From the IMG/VR virus record IMGVR_UViG_3300033149_005670, positions 1-11,688 of that record: a stretch of DNA of 11,688 bases; one strand, written 5' to 3'. Shown piece after piece: positions 1,930 to 10,083 of this stretch. The stretch is from a virus. The translations under genes and the position numbers were made by a program. Each line of letters opens with the position of its first letter. Within the stretch, counting starts at the first letter, position 1. The notes under the pieces are model-generated. The model saw nothing but the letters and a program-made list of their open reading frames with translations. It did no database searches and had not been told where the DNA came from.

Positions 1930-1967
1930 AAGGATTAGTTGAGGCAGAGTTGATCTTGGAAGAAGAA

Positions 1968-1975
1968 TTTAAAAA
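1968..1975 (+). promoter_or_regulatory. TATA-like box (tttaaaaa), 21 nt upstream of ATG 1997
   Basis: Same 8-mer + 21 nt + ATG geometry as five other sites, with a purine-rich stretch (aagaagaa) immediately upstream. Confidence 0.55.
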
Positions 1976-1996
1976 TGTCAAAGAGGAAGATTTGAA

Positions 1997-2122
1997 ATGG
2001 TGGTAAGCTGTGAATGTGCTGGTTTGCTGTTTTTGGATATATGTGCAGGTATAGGTCTACTTCTAATGATTTATGTAGCTTGGTTAAAATATCAGCAACT
2101 TGTTGTAGAGGGTAAGTTATAA
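1997..2122 (+). CDS. Micro-ORF, 41 aa, single predicted transmembrane helix (MVVSCECAGLLFLDICAGIGLLLMIYVAWLKYQQLVVEGKL); not in the track
   Basis: Hand translation shows a hydrophobic core. The promoter-spacing rule places a leaderless start exactly at this ATG. Confidence 0.45.
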   Translation: MVVSCECAGLLFLDICAGIGLLLMIYVAWLKYQQLVVEGKL

Positions 2123-2128
2123 TTCTGT

Positions 2129-2159
2129 AGTGGGTAATAGTGTGTGTGTCTCTCTCTCT
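2129..2159. repeat. agtgggtaa + (TG)4(TC)5 dinucleotide tract
   Basis: agtgggtaatag tgtgtgtg tctctctctct lies directly after the stop at 2122 and mirrors the elements at 816..833. Confidence 0.7.
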
Positions 2160-2168
2160 AAAAGTGTC

Positions 2169-2211
2169 TAATTAGTATTATTAAATATTAGTATTTTAGA
2201 GTATATTAGTA
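2169..2211. repeat. Three direct copies of a 9-mer (taattagta / atattagta / atattagta), iteron-like
   Basis: The attagta cores are at 2171, 2187 and 2205 (spacing 16 and 18 nt) within a very AT-rich stretch. Confidence 0.6.
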
Positions 2212-2275
2212 GCATATCAAGTAAGTGGTAACACTTTCTAGACTAAGATACGAATAAAAACCTTAGTTTGGCAAT

Positions 2276-2308
2276 ACCTTATTACCTTATTCTTAAGACA
2301 GACAGACA
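2276..2308. repeat. Tandem accttatt x2 followed by (gaca)3
   Basis: accttatt is at 2276..2283 and 2284..2291, and gacagacagaca is at 2297..2308. ccttattct recurs at 2372..2380. Confidence 0.6.
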
Positions 2309-2383
2309 CACTAACTTAGGCCTCTTTCATCCTTCGACTAAACATCAGAATCTTTTTGAGTATAGTTGTATCCTTATTCTACC

Positions 2384-2539
2384 TTAACGACACAGCAAGC
2401 AGACTTCCATAAGCTTGTCATTACAGAAGACTATACGATCACACTTAGAACATCTTTTTGCGACTATAGCTGATGTTGCGATTAAGGGTATTTCTTTGAG
2501 TTCTTTTAAGTTTATCTCATCGTGTAGTCTTTCTCCCAT
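2384..2539 (-). CDS. Micro-gene on the minus strand: 51-aa zinc-ribbon protein (C-x2-C-x13-C-x2-C), a candidate regulator
   Basis: Hand reverse-translation gives MGERLHDEINLKELKEIPLIATSAIVAKRCSKCDRIVFCNDKLMEVCLLCR*. A TATA-like box sits exactly 21 nt upstream on the minus strand. It is the only convincing minus-strand gene. Confidence 0.55.
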   Translation of the reverse strand: MGERLHDEINLKELKEIPLIATSAIVAKRCSKCDRIVFCNDKLMEVCLLCR

Positions 2540-2560
2540 AGATTTCTGTAGAATAGGATG

Positions 2561-2568
2561 TATATAAA
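2561..2568 (-). promoter_or_regulatory. TATA-like box (tttatata on the minus strand), 21 nt upstream of the zinc-ribbon ATG
   Basis: + strand tatataaa at 2561..2568, then 21 nt (2540..2560), then cat (= ATG) at 2537..2539. Confidence 0.55.
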
Positions 2569-2625
2569 AGTTGTTTACTACTCATGAGTTTTTCTTTACT
2601 TTTAGGAACATCACTTATCAATAGT

Positions 2626-2633
2626 TTTATATA
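2626..2633 (+). promoter_or_regulatory. TATA-like box (tttatata) with no downstream ORF; candidate promoter of a non-coding transcript
   Basis: It is divergent from the zinc-ribbon promoter. The 21-nt rule predicts a start at about G2655, and no ORF longer than about 25 codons follows on the + strand before 3188. Confidence 0.45.
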
Positions 2634-2645
2634 TTTTAGAAACTT

Positions 2646-2666
2646 CAGACTTGCGTAGCAAGTCTG
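2646..2666. promoter_or_regulatory. Perfect 9-bp inverted repeat with a 3-nt centre (cagacttgc gta gcaagtctg); candidate operator
   Basis: The reverse complement of 2646..2654 equals 2658..2666. The centre (2656) coincides with the start predicted from the 2626 TATA box. The half-site cagactt also occurs at 2403..2409. Confidence 0.5.
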
Positions 2667-2751
2667 TCTACCTAAAACATAAAAAGACTATTTAGTTCTG
2701 CTCCTAAAAGTAACAAAACAAACCTTTCTTGACTTACACCCCCCCTTTTCT

Positions 2752-2823
2752 TTAGTGAACTTGGCCTTCTTGGCCAAGTGGGCTCTATAGAGCCCATCCC
2801 TTCAAGAAGAAGGGATTCACTAA
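2752..2823 (+). other. Gap-free four-way junction (cloverleaf-like but not tRNA); could form in RNA or as extruded DNA
   Basis: The closing stem is 2752..2759 with 2816..2823 (8 bp). Hairpin 1 is 2760..2766 / 2772..2778 (loop ttctt). Hairpin 2 is 2779..2785 / 2790..2796 (loop tata). Hairpin 3 is 2797..2803 / 2809..2815 (loop aagaa). All pairs are Watson-Crick and no base is unpaired between helices. Confidence 0.75.
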
Positions 2824-2836
2824 CCCAGGACTTCTT

Positions 2837-2873
2837 CTTCTGGCCTTAGTGAGCCTCTGCTTCTGGCCTTAGT
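2837..2873 (+). repeat. 14-nt direct repeat cttctggccttagt, two copies 23 nt apart
   Basis: Copies are at 2837..2850 and 2860..2873. The uggccu core of either copy can pair with aggcca at 2908..2913. Confidence 0.7.
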
Positions 2874-3030
2874 AGTTATCCGCTACACCGGGTAACTCAA
2901 GATGAATAGGCCATTTTGTAAAGCTGTTCCATAAGAAATAGAGCATAGGTAACCTCCATTTCCAGTGGAACTCAGAATATTAGCGAGAGTTGTCACTACA
3001 CAATAGTGATTTGCTTAACCCTCCAGAAAC

Positions 3031-3057
3031 TTTTTAAAATTTTTAATATTTTAAAAA
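3031..3057 (+). terminator. Oligo-T runs within an AT-only inverted repeat (tttttaaaa ... ttttaaaaa)
   Basis: There is a T5 run at 3031..3035 and a T4 run at 3041..3044. 3031..3039 is the reverse complement of 3049..3057. This could be an oligo-T terminator or an easily melted duplex. Confidence 0.3.
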
Positions 3058-3158
3058 TCTCATTTCACTTATTATATAGAGTGAGGTGGATAGTTCATCT
3101 TGATATCCAAAACATCACTCAACTTTTTAATTTTTTTAAAAAAAGAAAAAACAAAAAG

Positions 3159-3166
3159 TATTTAAA
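3159..3166 (+). promoter_or_regulatory. TATA-like box (tatttaaa), 21 nt upstream of ATG 3188; promoter of the packaging/structural operon
   Basis: The 8-mer and spacing are identical to the site at 7982..7989, with an A-rich stretch (acaaaaag) upstream. Confidence 0.6.
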
Positions 3167-3187
3167 GAAGTTCGCATAACTCTTTTA

Positions 3188-3397
3188 ATGGGAATCAGGA
3201 AAAAGATGACTGCTGTCATAGGAAACAAGAATCAATCACGATGGAACACCATAAAGCAAAACTCAGAAGCGATTTTGGAACAGGCAAATATGCAGGTAAT
3301 GCTTCAAACAGAGATTCTAAAGATAGCAAAGAAGAAGTTAAAAGGAACAAAGGAGATAGATATATCAAACTTGATAAGTGGCAAGAAGAAGTCTTAA
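3188..3397 (+). CDS. Small basic protein (69 aa), overlapping the terminase N-terminus in another frame
   Basis: The ATG is exactly at the leaderless position predicted by the promoter rule. It overlaps 3241..3397 of the terminase ORF, and its function is unknown. Confidence 0.4.
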   Translation: MGIRKKMTAVIGNKNQSRWNTIKQNSEAILEQANMQVMLQTEILKIAKKKLKGTKEIDISNLISGKKKS

Positions 3398-4674
3398 ATG
3401 CAAAAGGACATTTCTTATTGTGCACTGGTAGACAAGTAGGTAAAACAACTATTTTTGCGATTAAAGCAGCTGAAAGAATGATATCTCAAAAGGGGTGCAG
3501 AATTATAGCTGTTTCTCTTACAGAAGATCAGGCCTTTCTTATGAAAACCATGGTTCAGGATTACCTGGAAAAGAAGTATAAATCTTATTTGAAAGTTAAG
3601 AAAGAGCATAAACCAACAAAAAACAGAATTATTCTAAATAATGGAAGTTCATACATCGTTAGACCTGTTGGAAATACTGGAGATGCAGTTAGAGGGTTTA
3701 CAGGCGATGTTTTAATTATAGACGAGGCGAGTAGAATGCCTGAAAGTGTTTTTATAGCTTCAAAACCAACATTACTAACAACTGGTGGAGATATTTGGAT
3801 GTGCTCGACTCCTTTTGGAAAGAAAGGCTACTTTTACGAATCCTGGCTTAATAAAAACAAAAGATTCAAAGTTTTTCACATTTCAAGCGAGAAAGTCATC
3901 CAGGATAGAGAGATAAGCGAAAGTTGGAGTGAGGAAAAAAGAGAATCTGCCATAAGAATGCTTGAAGAAGAGAAAAAAGACATGTCTACACTTCAATATG
4001 CCCAGGAATATTTAGGAATGTTTACAGAAGATCTAAGGCAGTTCTTTCCTGATGAGTTAATAGAACAGGTCTGCACAGGCAAGAGAAATCAGCCTTTTAA
4101 TTTAGCTCCTAAGTTCTATATGGGAGTGGATATTGCAAGATTAGGAGAGGATAAAAGTGTCTTTGCAATAGTTAACAAAATACGAGATAATCTATTCCAT
4201 CAGGTAGAAAATATAGTAACATCAAAGAAAAGAACTACTGAAACCTTTGATAAGATAGTTGATTTAGAGCAGATGTGGAAGTTTAAACAAATAGGAATAG
4301 ATGCAGGTTCAGGAAGTTTAGGTGTTGGGGTGTTTGACTTCCTTTTAAGAGAACCAATTATCAGGAAAAAGGTTATAGACCTGGATAATGCAAGAATAAT
4401 GAAAGATAGCAGAGGGGAAAAAACAGGAAGATGGTTTAAAGAAGCTTCTTATGCTAATATGTTAATGTTGATGGAAAAAGGAAGAGTTAGACTTCTTGAT
4501 GATGATGAGATAAAACTCTCTTTGAAATCAGTTCAATATGAATACTCTATTAAGCCAGGACAGAAGTCTAAGATGATAATATTTGGAAGAAATCATGATA
4601 TTGTGGAAGCAATTCAAAGAGCACTATGGTTAGCAAATCAGAAAACTATAAATACACAGATAAGTTACATTTAA
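3241..4674 (+). CDS. terL: Terminase large subunit (packaging ATPase plus nuclease)
   Basis: Walker A is CTGRQVGKTT and Walker B is DVLIIDEAS, followed by a CSTPFG coupling motif. The C-terminal RNase H-like nuclease has acidic motifs (MGVDIARLGEDKSV, IGIDAGSGSLG, HDIVEAIQ). Length is 477 aa. Confidence 0.93.
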   Translation: MEHHKAKLRSDFGTGKYAGNASNRDSKDSKEEVKRNKGDRYIKLDKWQEEVLNAKGHFLLCTGRQVGKTTIFAIKAAERMISQKGCRIIAVSLTEDQAFLMKTMVQDYLEKKYKSYLKVKKEHKPTKNRIILNNGSSYIVRPVGNTGDAVRGFTGDVLIIDEASRMPESVFIASKPTLLTTGGDIWMCSTPFGKKGYFYESWLNKNKRFKVFHISSEKVIQDREISESWSEEKRESAIRMLEEEKKDMSTLQYAQEYLGMFTEDLRQFFPDELIEQVCTGKRNQPFNLAPKFYMGVDIARLGEDKSVFAIVNKIRDNLFHQVENIVTSKKRTTETFDKIVDLEQMWKFKQIGIDAGSGSLGVGVFDFLLREPIIRKKVIDLDNARIMKDSRGEKTGRWFKEASYANMLMLMEKGRVRLLDDDEIKLSLKSVQYEYSIKPGQKSKMIIFGRNHDIVEAIQRALWLANQKTINTQISYI

Positions 4675-5027: not shown

Positions 5028-5675
5028 ATGTTTCAAAAACCTTATCAAACTCAGAATGTTCCTCTTATTAATTATAACTTTACAGATACAATTACAGGAG
5101 TTTCTTATAAAACATTCTATGCAGGAGATGCTTCAGGAACTAAATTTTTAATATCTTCTCCAACTGCTTCTTCATGGGGGGGAATAACTCAGGTAGGAAA
5201 CAGCATATATCAAGGTAGTTTAGTTTTAGCAGGAACTTATAACTTTGATACAACTTTTAATATTCCTCAAATAATAGAAGGGGATGCAGTAGCACAATTT
5301 ACATTAGGCCAGTATTGGGAAGGAAATGCAACAGGAACAAGAAGACAAGCAAGAATATCTTTGCAGAAAAATACAGTTGAATTAATAAGTGGAGCAACTA
5401 CTGCAACAGTAGCAGCTGATGGAAGTGCAGGTGATACTTTATCAGCACCAGAAGCGATTATATTACCAGTTCCAAAAACATCTTTCGCAATAGGAGATAC
5501 TTTAAGAATGGAAGTTAAGATATATGGTCAGGGTCAGGGAAGTCCAGGCCAAGATATAAAACCAGGAATAGGAACAGATCCAAATGGTGCAAAGGATGAA
5601 GGAACTAAGAAAGTTATAGAAGATACAGACTCAACAATATTTAAACTACACTTGCCATTTAGGGCAGATATATAA
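5028..5675 (+). CDS. Hypothetical beta-rich structural protein (215 aa)
   Basis: The ORF is coupled on both sides (a TAATG overlap with the portal gene) and has a Gly/Thr/Ser-rich composition. It contains a G7 tract at 5176..5182. Confidence 0.8.
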   Translation: MFQKPYQTQNVPLINYNFTDTITGVSYKTFYAGDASGTKFLISSPTASSWGGITQVGNSIYQGSLVLAGTYNFDTTFNIPQIIEGDAVAQFTLGQYWEGNATGTRRQARISLQKNTVELISGATTATVAADGSAGDTLSAPEAIILPVPKTSFAIGDTLRMEVKIYGQGQGSPGQDIKPGIGTDPNGAKDEGTKKVIEDTDSTIFKLHLPFRADI

Positions 5676-6742
5676 TGGCGAACTTTGACATAAGACAAAC
5701 AACAACAACAGGACTCAAAACAGGAGTTCCAAACTTCTCTATAGATGCAACTCAAGTGTCAGGAATACAAGATGCTCCGGAAACAAAGCAGACATTTGAA
5801 GAATTTAACAATAGATTTACTTACTATGACACAATTCCAGAACTAAAAAAAGCCATTCAAGTCTATGCAACATGGGTTTTAGGACAGGGTTATGATTCTC
5901 CTCAAAGTGTAATTTTAGATAATATAACAGGTAGTGGAGAGGACTCTTTTACATCTATTCTATGGAACTTGCTTGTTACAAAGAAGATTAATGGAGATGC
6001 TTTTGCTGAAATTGTGAGAAATGATAAAGGAACTTTGATTAATCTTAAACCTTTAAATCCTCAAAGGATGGCTGTAATCTTCAGCAAGAAAGGAGTTATA
6101 GATAGATATGAGTATCAGGGAAGAAAAGAACCATTTACACCTGATAAGATATTTCACTTAGTAAATGATAGAATAGCAGATTCTACTCATGGAGATTCTG
6201 TAATTGATGCTTTGAAATGGTTAATTGATGCAAGGCAGGAAGCTATGAGAGACTGGAGAAGAATATCGCATAGGAGCACAATAAGAGTGCTGATAGTTGA
6301 TGAGGATGATCCTGCTAAATTAACAACTTTGAAAACTCAGTATAAAGATGCAATTAAAAATGGAGAGGTTTTGATTCTGCCAGGGAAACCAGGCGAGAAG
6401 GCTTTTCAGGACTTGCAGCTTCCTCCTGTAGAGGCCTTCTTGGCCTGGATTAGATATTTAGAAAATGCATTTTATAAAGCAGTTGGAACTCCAAAGACCT
6501 TAGCAGGAGATGCAGAAGGTATTCCTGAATCAGGGGGAAAGATGGTAGTTCTTACTCATGAACCTACTTATGTAAGAGAAGTTAATGATTTAGAAAATGA
6601 TATTTGGAATCAGTTAGCTATTAGAATTACATTTAAGAGACAGGCTTCACTTAAAGAGAATGTTCGGGAACAAGAAGGAAAGAGTATAAATCAAACTCAG
6701 GCAGTTCAGCCAAGTGATACAAATATAAGAGATATTAAATAA
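5675..6742 (+). CDS. Portal protein (small, 355 aa)
   Basis: Its position near terL and its portal-family-like motifs support the call (NGDAFAEIVRN..G.LINLKPLNP, HGDSVIDAL, and a helical PPVEAFLAWIRYLENAFYKAVGTP segment). Confidence 0.8.
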   Translation: MANFDIRQTTTTGLKTGVPNFSIDATQVSGIQDAPETKQTFEEFNNRFTYYDTIPELKKAIQVYATWVLGQGYDSPQSVILDNITGSGEDSFTSILWNLLVTKKINGDAFAEIVRNDKGTLINLKPLNPQRMAVIFSKKGVIDRYEYQGRKEPFTPDKIFHLVNDRIADSTHGDSVIDALKWLIDARQEAMRDWRRISHRSTIRVLIVDEDDPAKLTTLKTQYKDAIKNGEVLILPGKPGEKAFQDLQLPPVEAFLAWIRYLENAFYKAVGTPKTLAGDAEGIPESGGKMVVLTHEPTYVREVNDLENDIWNQLAIRITFKRQASLKENVREQEGKSINQTQAVQPSDTNIRDIK

Positions 6743-9155: not shown

Positions 9156-9232
9156 TGGAAGAAGAAAATAAACAACCTGAGGATTTTGTTGAGGAAGTTA
9201 ATAAAGAATCCGAAGAAAATAAAGAAGAATAA
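9155..9232 (+). CDS. Micro-ORF, 25 aa, strongly acidic (MEEENKQPEDFVEEVNKESEENKEE); not in the track
   Basis: TAATG overlaps at both ends (9153-9157 and 9230-9234) bridge the decoration and capsid genes exactly. Confidence 0.4.
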   Translation: MEEENKQPEDFVEEVNKESEENKEE

Positions 9233-10083
9233 TGGCAGATAGAGTAGAAATGGCTGAAATAAGAGGATTAGATGTAGACAAAGCTGTGAAAGGCTTTGCT
9301 TTAACAAACTATATCTTTAAGAATCATGTAACTGTTAGCTCTATGAGTGGAGATAGTGTTAGATGGTATCAGGAAACTGCTGATGATTTGACTGCTACTG
9401 CACCTTCTAAAGTTGCAGATATTGCACCTTTAGCTACATTTACAAACTTAGAGCCAAGTTGGACTCGTCAGACTTCTTATCCAAAGAAATATGGAGCAAG
9501 AGGATTTATTTCACTTGAAGATTTAAAGTCTGCTGATATTGATATTTTAGCAAGAACTCTTTTAAGACTTACAAGAGGAGTAATTAAGCAGGTTGATTCA
9601 AGAATTTATAATATTATTAAAGGTGTTACTCTAACAGGGGCAGCTTTAGGAACTGGATGGGATGACACAACTAATGGAAAACCTTTAGTAGATATTCTCT
9701 CAGGGCAACAGGCTATTGCTGAACATGATTATGATATATCTTCAGGAGAGATATGGATGACTCCTAAGAACCACAGAGACTTAAAACAATATTTAATAGA
9801 TACCAAAGGGACTTACTTTACTCAATATGCAAGTGAGAAACTTAAGACTGGTGTAGTTATGAATGTGTTGGGATGGGATGTTGTAGTTTCAAATAATGTA
9901 ACTGCTGATGAGGTATGGATGGGACTGCCTAAGGTTGCATGCACTTGGAAAACTTATACAGACACAACTGCTAATGTAACTGATAAGCCAGGATTAGGTA
10001 AAGAGATAGTTGTATGGGAAATGGGAGAAGCTATTTTAACAGACCCTTATGCAGGTTACCTTATAACTGATGTAGATACATAA
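9232..10083 (+). CDS. Major capsid protein, HK97 fold (283 aa)
   Basis: Its size and synteny (scaffold, decoration, then capsid) support the call. So does a spine-helix-like segment (SLEDLKSADIDILARTLLRLTRGVIKQVDSRIYNII) and a C-terminal beta-rich region. Confidence 0.8.
   Translation: MADRVEMAEIRGLDVDKAVKGFALTNYIFKNHVTVSSMSGDSVRWYQETADDLTATAPSKVADIAPLATFTNLEPSWTRQTSYPKKYGARGFISLEDLKSADIDILARTLLRLTRGVIKQVDSRIYNIIKGVTLTGAALGTGWDDTTNGKPLVDILSGQQAIAEHDYDISSGEIWMTPKNHRDLKQYLIDTKGTYFTQYASEKLKTGVVMNVLGWDVVVSNNVTADEVWMGLPKVACTWKTYTDTTANVTDKPGLGKEIVVWEMGEAILTDPYAGYLITDVDT

Follow-up and report, generated by a model that had tools for sequence, protein, structure and literature searches.

A gene-free stretch before the terminase gene of a tiny archaeal-type tailed virus is probably a DNA control region with an archaeal-type replication origin

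IMGVR_UViG_3300033149_005670 is a complete virus record from IMG/VR with 11,688 nt, and we analyzed all of it ("the window"). A 114-nt repeat at its two ends sits within an ORF, so we read it as the assembly overlap of a circular or permuted genome. The large genes are all on the + strand, and they include the large terminase (TerL; 3241-4674, with a match to Terminase_6N), the portal (5675-6742), and an HK97-type capsid protein (9232-10083). Upstream of terL, there is no ORF of at least 60 amino acids in 1930-3187. Among the ORFs of the window that were tested, we found no recognizable replication protein, no TerS-like protein, and no match to the Cdc6/AAA family. A blastn search against a phage collection gave no match.

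Relatives were found in three ways: a protein search with TerL gave 18 related loci in viral contigs, a search with a TerL alignment gave 80 metagenome loci and 8 loci in MAGs, and a search for a 22-nt motif gave 53 further viral contigs. Altogether, we compared over 100 related virus contigs of about 11-12.5 kb. Many of these are 11.3-12.9 kb, so they form a family of miniature tailed viruses, and the window is a tiny archaeal-type tailed virus. (Two contigs of this family, L101 and L102, are in MAGs that are labeled as CPR bacteria, namely Levyibacteriota and Saccharibacteria. These contigs are virus-sized, and we set the labels aside as evidence about the host. Given the archaeal promoters and origin recognition boxes described below, they are probably binning errors.)

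The archaeal character of the window is suggested by its promoters. Six genes that come first in their operons share one arrangement: an A/T 8-mer, then exactly 21 nt, and then the ATG. This indicates archaeal-type promoters and leaderless mRNAs. Scans for bacterial sigma-70 promoters and for intrinsic terminators gave results at or below chance. Another archaeal-type TATA box, TTTATATA at 2626-2633 (+ strand), is an orphan promoter with no ORF behind it. In the relatives it is kept as TTTAWATA, and the unit downstream is ORF-free there too, over 330-420 nt. If the 21-nt rule is applied to this box, transcription should start at about 2655, which is where the original prediction had put it.

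That prediction was of a discrete structured non-coding RNA of about 380 nt that would span about 2655-3035 of the + strand. The cloverleaf and hairpins would form in this RNA, which might act in packaging (as the pRNA of phi29 does) or in regulation. How well the region is conserved matters for this idea, and 2626-3060 is a conserved modular cassette across the related contigs. In the window, the TATA box comes first, with a palindrome at the predicted start site. After it come a C-run, then a four-way junction, then direct repeats and a 22-bp palindrome, and then two origin recognition boxes (ORBs) as an inverted pair; a C-rich end with oligo-T and an A/T tract are last. The usual order in the relatives (in the sense of TerL) is similar: the TTTAWATA box, a perfect palindrome, about 100 variable nt, and C-runs; two or three adjacent hairpins of 7-8 bp, short direct repeats, the palindrome GTTATTCGGTAYACCGAATAAC, and optional ORBs; and finally GCGAGAGTT or CCGACGTT, a C-rich CAGAAA motif that leads into a T-run, A/T-only sequence, and the terminase promoter. 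The C-runs and several of the non-palindromic motifs keep one fixed orientation relative to TerL, and in most relatives the cassette lies directly upstream of terL. Both of these features fit a non-coding RNA, as do the conservation of the orphan box with its fixed distance rule and the lack of ORFs. In contrast, the order and the context of the modules vary, which does not fit. For instance, an ORB lies upstream of the promoter in L008, an ORB takes the place of the junction in L129, L134, and L147, and some relatives have ORB pairs or hairpins with C7 loops instead of the adjacent hairpins.

Several of the smaller modules had been noticed before and are as described. A C7 run (2739-2745, + strand) lies just upstream of the junction, and in many relatives the junction, or whatever replaces it, is bordered by C-runs. 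A tract of CTTCTTCTT and two copies of a 14-nt direct repeat, CTTCTGGCCTTAGT (2837-50 and 2860-73), make up 2831-2873 on the + strand; direct repeats recur at this position of the cassette in relatives, with different sequences. Further along the + strand, 2982-2999 holds the conserved motif AGCGAGAGTT followed by CACTAC, and 3013-3035 holds the conserved end motif GCTTAACCCTCCAGAAAC followed by T5 (in relatives, GCTWAWCCCC..CAGAAA and a T-run). The T-run at 3031-3035 is the first with at least five Ts, as had been claimed for the end of the transcript, and there are earlier T4 runs at 2746-2749 and 2915-2918. The conservation of the end motif and its T-run favors a non-coding RNA. Since conservation extends to the promoter, the lack of ORFs, and the T-run, a + strand transcript from about 2655 to 3031-3035 is plausible. 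A search of sequencing runs listed no RNA run with this sequence and only one DNA run, with a small share of matching words, which has no bearing on expression. From 3031 to 3160, the sequence is A/T-rich with T- and A-runs (GC content 0.29-0.33) and is a candidate unwinding element. This stretch ends at the next promoter (TATA box at 3159, ATG at 3188).

Five relatives (L144, L161, L134, L147, and L117) have another kind of module, namely two runs of 7-8 Gs that are 3-7 nt apart and about 60-130 nt upstream of terL. These paired runs come after CCGACGTTG and before the CAGAAA/T-run end; the window has no such runs. They recall CSB II of mitochondria, which is a G-rich block before a primer end. 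We considered long-range pairing between C-runs and G-runs and dropped the idea, because C-runs are not regularly present in the relatives that have two G8 runs.

We then examined the start of the predicted transcript. A perfect palindrome (9 + 3 + 9 nt; 2646-2666) has its center at 2656, on the predicted start site. In 27 relatives, the TTTAWATA box is likewise followed by a perfect palindrome, whose dyad center is 22-24 nt after the box. The spacing holds at any arm length from 7 to 12 nt, and just 1% of random anchors pass the same test. The arms covary among the relatives. Because the palindrome straddles the start, an RNA from the predicted start could not contain both arms, so this is a feature of the DNA, which argues against the RNA reading. 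Its role is probably that of an operator, or else of a hairpin that can be extruded. The palindrome is also near the center (about 2655) of an imperfect 128-bp dyad (2591-2718) with 45-nt arms that are 71% complementary; a motif from its outer arm, CCTAAAAGTAAC, recurs in L008 and L136. A divergent gene for a 51-amino-acid zinc-ribbon protein was considered as the partner of the start-site palindrome and was dropped, as no relative has such a gene there.

The four-way junction lies at 2752-2823 and has no gaps between its stems. Stem P1 (2752-59 with 2816-23) closes it, and the inner arms are P2 (2760-78, loop TTCTT), P3 (2779-96, loop TATA), and P4 (2797-2815, loop AAGAA). We found further junctions in eight relatives (L008, L031, L036, which is cut, L052, L124, L136, L144, and L161). 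All of the stems differ in sequence among relatives, yet 7-8 perfect pairs are kept. The loops are conserved: P2 has TTCKT or TGTG, P4 has AMGAA (or once TACA), and P3 has TATA, TCGA, AGCT, TAGA, or TCTA. Covarying stems with conserved loops are a classical signature of RNA. Also, the P2 and P4 loops are complementary to each other in 4 of 8 junctions, and in L144 both loops have changed together (TTCGT/ACGAA).

The junction truly covaries, though not in the manner of known RNAs. First, all 171 of the 171 stem pairs are Watson-Crick, with no G·T pairs. Second, the loop of P3 is in most cases self-complementary, which makes P3 a palindrome without a spacer. Third, because the P2 and P4 loops are reverse complements, both strands show the same loops in the same order. 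A covariance model of the junction therefore scores both strands, and it has no strand preference. In fact, the loops of the L161 junction match the type in L052 and L136 only if the other strand is read. The model had no hits in 151 genomes of the archaeal phylum of G001. We considered and dropped the possibility that the junction is tRNA-like or a MITE, as ARAGORN finds no tRNA and the stems differ completely while the loops are kept.

Two more observations concern the junctions. On either strand, 118 of the 171 stem pairs across the relatives have T or C on the 5' side. L114 has a three-way version (about 300-420, in TerL sense) with two TCGA-loop hairpins, and it is followed by three tandem 20-nt copies of the 3' arm of its own closing stem.

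The wider folding of the region shows no strand preference either. The 381-nt interval folds better than 100 of 100 shuffles on either strand (-107.5 kcal/mol and z = -4.14 on the + strand; -129.7 kcal/mol and z = -4.94 on the - strand). Since both strands beat their shuffles, the folding energy does not indicate a strand. No match in the window reaches the Rfam gathering score, and ARAGORN finds no tRNA or tmRNA in it. Cassette hairpins that have one internal mismatch show little sign of wobble pairing: the mismatch is G·T in 5, A·C in 4, and of another type in 21. Self-complementary 4-nt loops (TCGA, TATA, TTAA, or GGCC) are present in 22 of 63 distinct hairpins, where about 6% would be expected, so they are over-represented by 5-6 times. 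This mix of mismatches and the excess of self-complementary loops are signatures of DNA palindromes. RNAalifold gave only local hairpins and no long-range helix for ten whole cassettes, a result of little weight because their alignment was rough.

The additional pairings that had been proposed for the RNA were also compared across relatives. They are not conserved. The hairpin at 2992-3010 exists (7 pairs, including one G·T) and recurs only in L114. The segment AGGCCA (2908-2913), which was to pair with either copy of the direct repeat, is present in the window but missing from the closest relative, L003, and the pairing is absent from L008, L031, L052, L136, and L144. Similarly, AAGAAGAAG (2804-2812) and CTTCTTCTT (2831-2839) are complementary as claimed, but the helix is absent from those same five relatives; the tract CTTCTTCT itself does recur in L008. 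The mutually exclusive helices of the proposed switch between two folds are not conserved in the relatives examined.

Another hairpin had been offered as evidence for RNA on the + strand. It is formed by GTTATCCG and CGGGTAAC at 2875-2896 and contains a U·G pair (T2879·G2892), which would be a mismatch on the other strand. The hairpin is there, but it turns out to be a degenerate form of a conserved DNA element, the 22-bp palindrome GTTATTCGGTAYACCGAATAAC, so the argument from the U·G pair fails. In relatives, this position is T-A, and other copies have A·A or C·C mismatches. The palindrome is conserved by sequence and not by covariation, and its exact consensus form is present in 53 viral contigs. 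In three relatives (L124 4650-4671, L126 2738-2759, and L143 3198-3219), it precedes the TATA box of the capsid operon by 5-6 nt; this operon encodes a protein of 138-141 amino acids and the capsid protein. This promoter-proximal position again argues for DNA over RNA. The palindrome looks like a site for a regulator of late promoters, and it is placed where a transcription factor would be expected to bind.

The 22-bp palindrome is also found in contigs without TerL, sometimes in many copies. Four such loci without a TerL match have many copies: L138, L139, and L160, which are on one 28-kb contig with at least 7 copies, and L133. The palindrome is therefore common to other mobile elements or viruses as well.

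The most informative element of the cassette had been overlooked. This is a 46-nt inverted repeat at 2926-2971, which is an inverted pair of ORBs. The right box (2950-2971) has an exact core, ATTTCCAGTGGAAC, at 2958-2971. The left box (2926-2943) is an inverted copy whose core (2926-2939) has 3 mismatches. The 13-bp mini-ORB of Pyrococcus is TTCCAGTGGAACT (PMC1904270), and 2960-2972 of the window is identical to it. The ORB1-3 oligonucleotides of P. furiosus have the same core as the window (PMC1904270), and the layout of the window's boxes resembles that of P. furiosus ORB1 (PMC1904270). The inverted repeat matches those of several relatives, some of which have tandem pairs, and L017 and L100 have arrays of 2-4 pairs. 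Across the relatives, ORB cores are concentrated near the terminase: their density is 0.464 per kb within 1 kb upstream of TerL and 0.033 per kb elsewhere (a 14-fold difference). These sites for a protein lie inside the supposed RNA, which argues against it.

The boxes also resemble those of cellular chromosomes. The relatives have an extended consensus, ACCTyyRTTTCCWRTGGAA, and we searched for this 19-nt pattern in 301 archaeal genomes (the phylum of an archaeal MAG, with genomes of 0.5-2 Mb). It was found in 25 of the 301 genomes, and a reversed control pattern had no matches. The two chromosomal matches that we examined both adjoin orc1/cdc6. One of them, L163, was read in sequence: it has cdc6, two boxes, about 120 nt of pure A/T, and an inverted box. 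This is the textbook layout of an archaeal origin (PMC5333045). Because both the core and the extended consensus match chromosomal boxes next to cdc6, we conclude that the window carries initiator boxes of the host type.

L163 itself (1445-1730) is the chromosomal origin of a small archaeal genome; it has an inverted ORB with a G-string, and its extended box does not differ from that of the viruses. This shared box hints at the host group.

Archaeal origins, such as Pyrococcus oriC, Sulfolobus oriC1 and oriC2, and those of DPANN-type genomes, combine ORBs or mini-ORBs with Orc1/Cdc6 and an A/T-rich unwinding element. The window is like these chromosomal origins in having the dyad core TTCCnnnGGAAA, a 13-mer that is the published mini-ORB, inverted boxes, and an A/T tract nearby, and it is like small archaeal chromosomes in that its extended consensus is that of the boxes beside orc1/cdc6. 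Also, it has several boxes clustered in a non-coding region, including the inverted pair, as an origin should. There are differences, too. The window is an 11.6-kb tailed virus with no orc1/cdc6 gene beside its ORBs. Its two boxes abut and do not flank the A/T tract, which begins 60 nt to one side of the pair, whereas in textbook origins the tract lies between boxes. Finally, neither an orphan promoter, nor a cloverleaf of palindromes, nor the 22-bp palindrome has been described for cellular origins.

Overall, we think that the gene-free stretch before terL is probably a DNA control region that includes a replication origin of the cellular archaeal type, and not a self-folding RNA. The control region would be 2626-3160, with the origin as its core. 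Since the virus has no recognizable replication protein, we infer that the host's Orc1/Cdc6 binds the inverted ORB pair at 2926-2971 and that the duplex opens at the A/T tract (3031-3160). The hairpin at 2875-2896 would be a weakened copy of a protein-binding palindrome that lies directly upstream of late promoters in the relatives, and the palindrome at 2646-2666 would be an operator or extrudable hairpin, centered on the start site of the orphan promoter. The strand-symmetric cloverleaf of perfect palindromes at 2752-2823 is probably extruded or unwound as DNA, and is probably a landmark for a replication or packaging protein; recognition during packaging and priming associated with the origin are the main candidates for its role. 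Transcription from the orphan promoter probably runs rightwards over these elements as far as the T-run at 3031. If an RNA is made in this way, it is more likely to be a by-product of the origin, or to activate it, than to be a regulatory RNA with a fold of its own. Given the strand symmetry, the start-site palindrome, and the ORBs, we consider a structured regulatory or packaging RNA to be unlikely.

If the RNA did act in packaging, then the obvious comparison would be the pRNA of phi29, which also has a branched junction with two mutually complementary loops and comes from a small tailed virus, by the packaging genes. But the window's junction is four-way instead of three-way, has no match to the pRNA family in Rfam, and is built from strand-symmetric perfect palindromes without wobble; only 4 of 8 relatives have complementary loops. 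And TerL is a classical large-subunit terminase of the two-domain type, not an ATPase of the phi29 type.

Alternatively, the cassette, and the cloverleaf especially, could be the pac or cos site for the terminase, in a family that has no recognizable small terminase. The cassette is immediately upstream of terL in most relatives, and no TerS-like protein was found. Also, the points at which contigs break vary relative to the 22-bp palindrome, which is consistent with circular permutation and with headful packaging that starts at a pac site. L145 has a 104-amino-acid ORF with motifs like those of HNH nucleases; it is placed after the cassette and about 283 nt before terL, much as in HK97-type cos phages. 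However, in L124 the junction stands alone between the structural gene block and the next TATA box, far from any terL, and in L132 a consensus copy of the 22-bp palindrome is several kb from terL. Furthermore, the ORBs account for part of the conservation without any role in packaging. A packaging site therefore seems quite improbable as an explanation for the cassette.

A third possibility is that the terminase operon has a long untranslated leader, transcribed from the orphan promoter, with the hairpins as elements for mRNA stability or attenuation. The promoter does point the same way as terL, with no ORF between them. But a separate TATA box lies 21 nt before the ATG at 3188, in a genome where leaderless mRNAs are the rule, and several relatives likewise have TATA boxes just before terL. 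T-runs intervene between the orphan promoter and terL, and the signature of DNA-type palindromes applies to this idea as well. We consider a leader very improbable.

The DNA control region that we favor also has parallels among viruses of eukaryotes. The core origin of SV40 and other polyomaviruses, and oriS and oriLyt of herpesviruses, have perfect palindromes, A/T tracts, and promoters within one short non-coding region, and transcription across or beside these origins is common. The window is alike in how palindromes, A/T tracts, and promoters are packed together. The initiators are unrelated, and the window has no virus-encoded initiator, so we do not claim homology. The terminal hairpins of parvoviruses such as AAV are T- or Y-shaped palindromes with flip and flop forms. 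Like them, the junction has a closing stem around adjacent small perfect palindromes with conserved tips, and flipped forms are seen between relatives. Unlike them, it is internal to a circularly assembled double-stranded DNA genome rather than at a terminus, it has three inner arms and not two, and the window encodes no Rep nickase.

We also considered a more specific role for transcription, in which an untranslated RNA is made from the orphan promoter through the flip-invariant cloverleaf and the Orc1 boxes into the A/T tract, and either this transcription or its product activates or primes replication. The cloverleaf would then work either in the RNA or in the single strand that is displaced. 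This would be an archaeal counterpart of the RNA II primer of ColE1 or of the mitochondrial LSP/CSB II system, and the double G8 runs before the T-run in several relatives are a hint in favor of it. We think that such priming is unlikely.

If replication does depend on host-type Orc1/Cdc6 boxes, this would explain how so small a genome can be autonomous. At about 11-12.5 kb, these viruses are about as small as tailed viruses get, and they have no recognizable replication protein. The ORB reading, if true, would also point to small-genome (DPANN-type) archaea, a group with few known viruses, as hosts. The cassette has three more conserved elements: the strand-symmetric covarying junction, the start-centered palindrome, and the 22-bp palindrome that is common to many contigs. 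They offer concrete handles on origin firing and late-gene control in archaea.

Some minor features of the window lie outside the cassette. At 1968-2122, there is a 41-amino-acid hydrophobic ORF (ATG at 1997), perhaps for a small membrane protein, and an A/T 8-mer of its own precedes it by 21 nt. Next to it is another ORF-free, A/T-rich stretch (2123-2383), with a (TG)4(TC)5 tract at 2141-2159 and no ORB core. On the other side of the cassette, a 69-amino-acid ORF (3188-3397) begins at the leaderless position, and it overlaps terL in another frame over the first 52 codons (3241-3364). The recognizable part of TerL starts only at residue 42, and several relatives begin terL just before that point.
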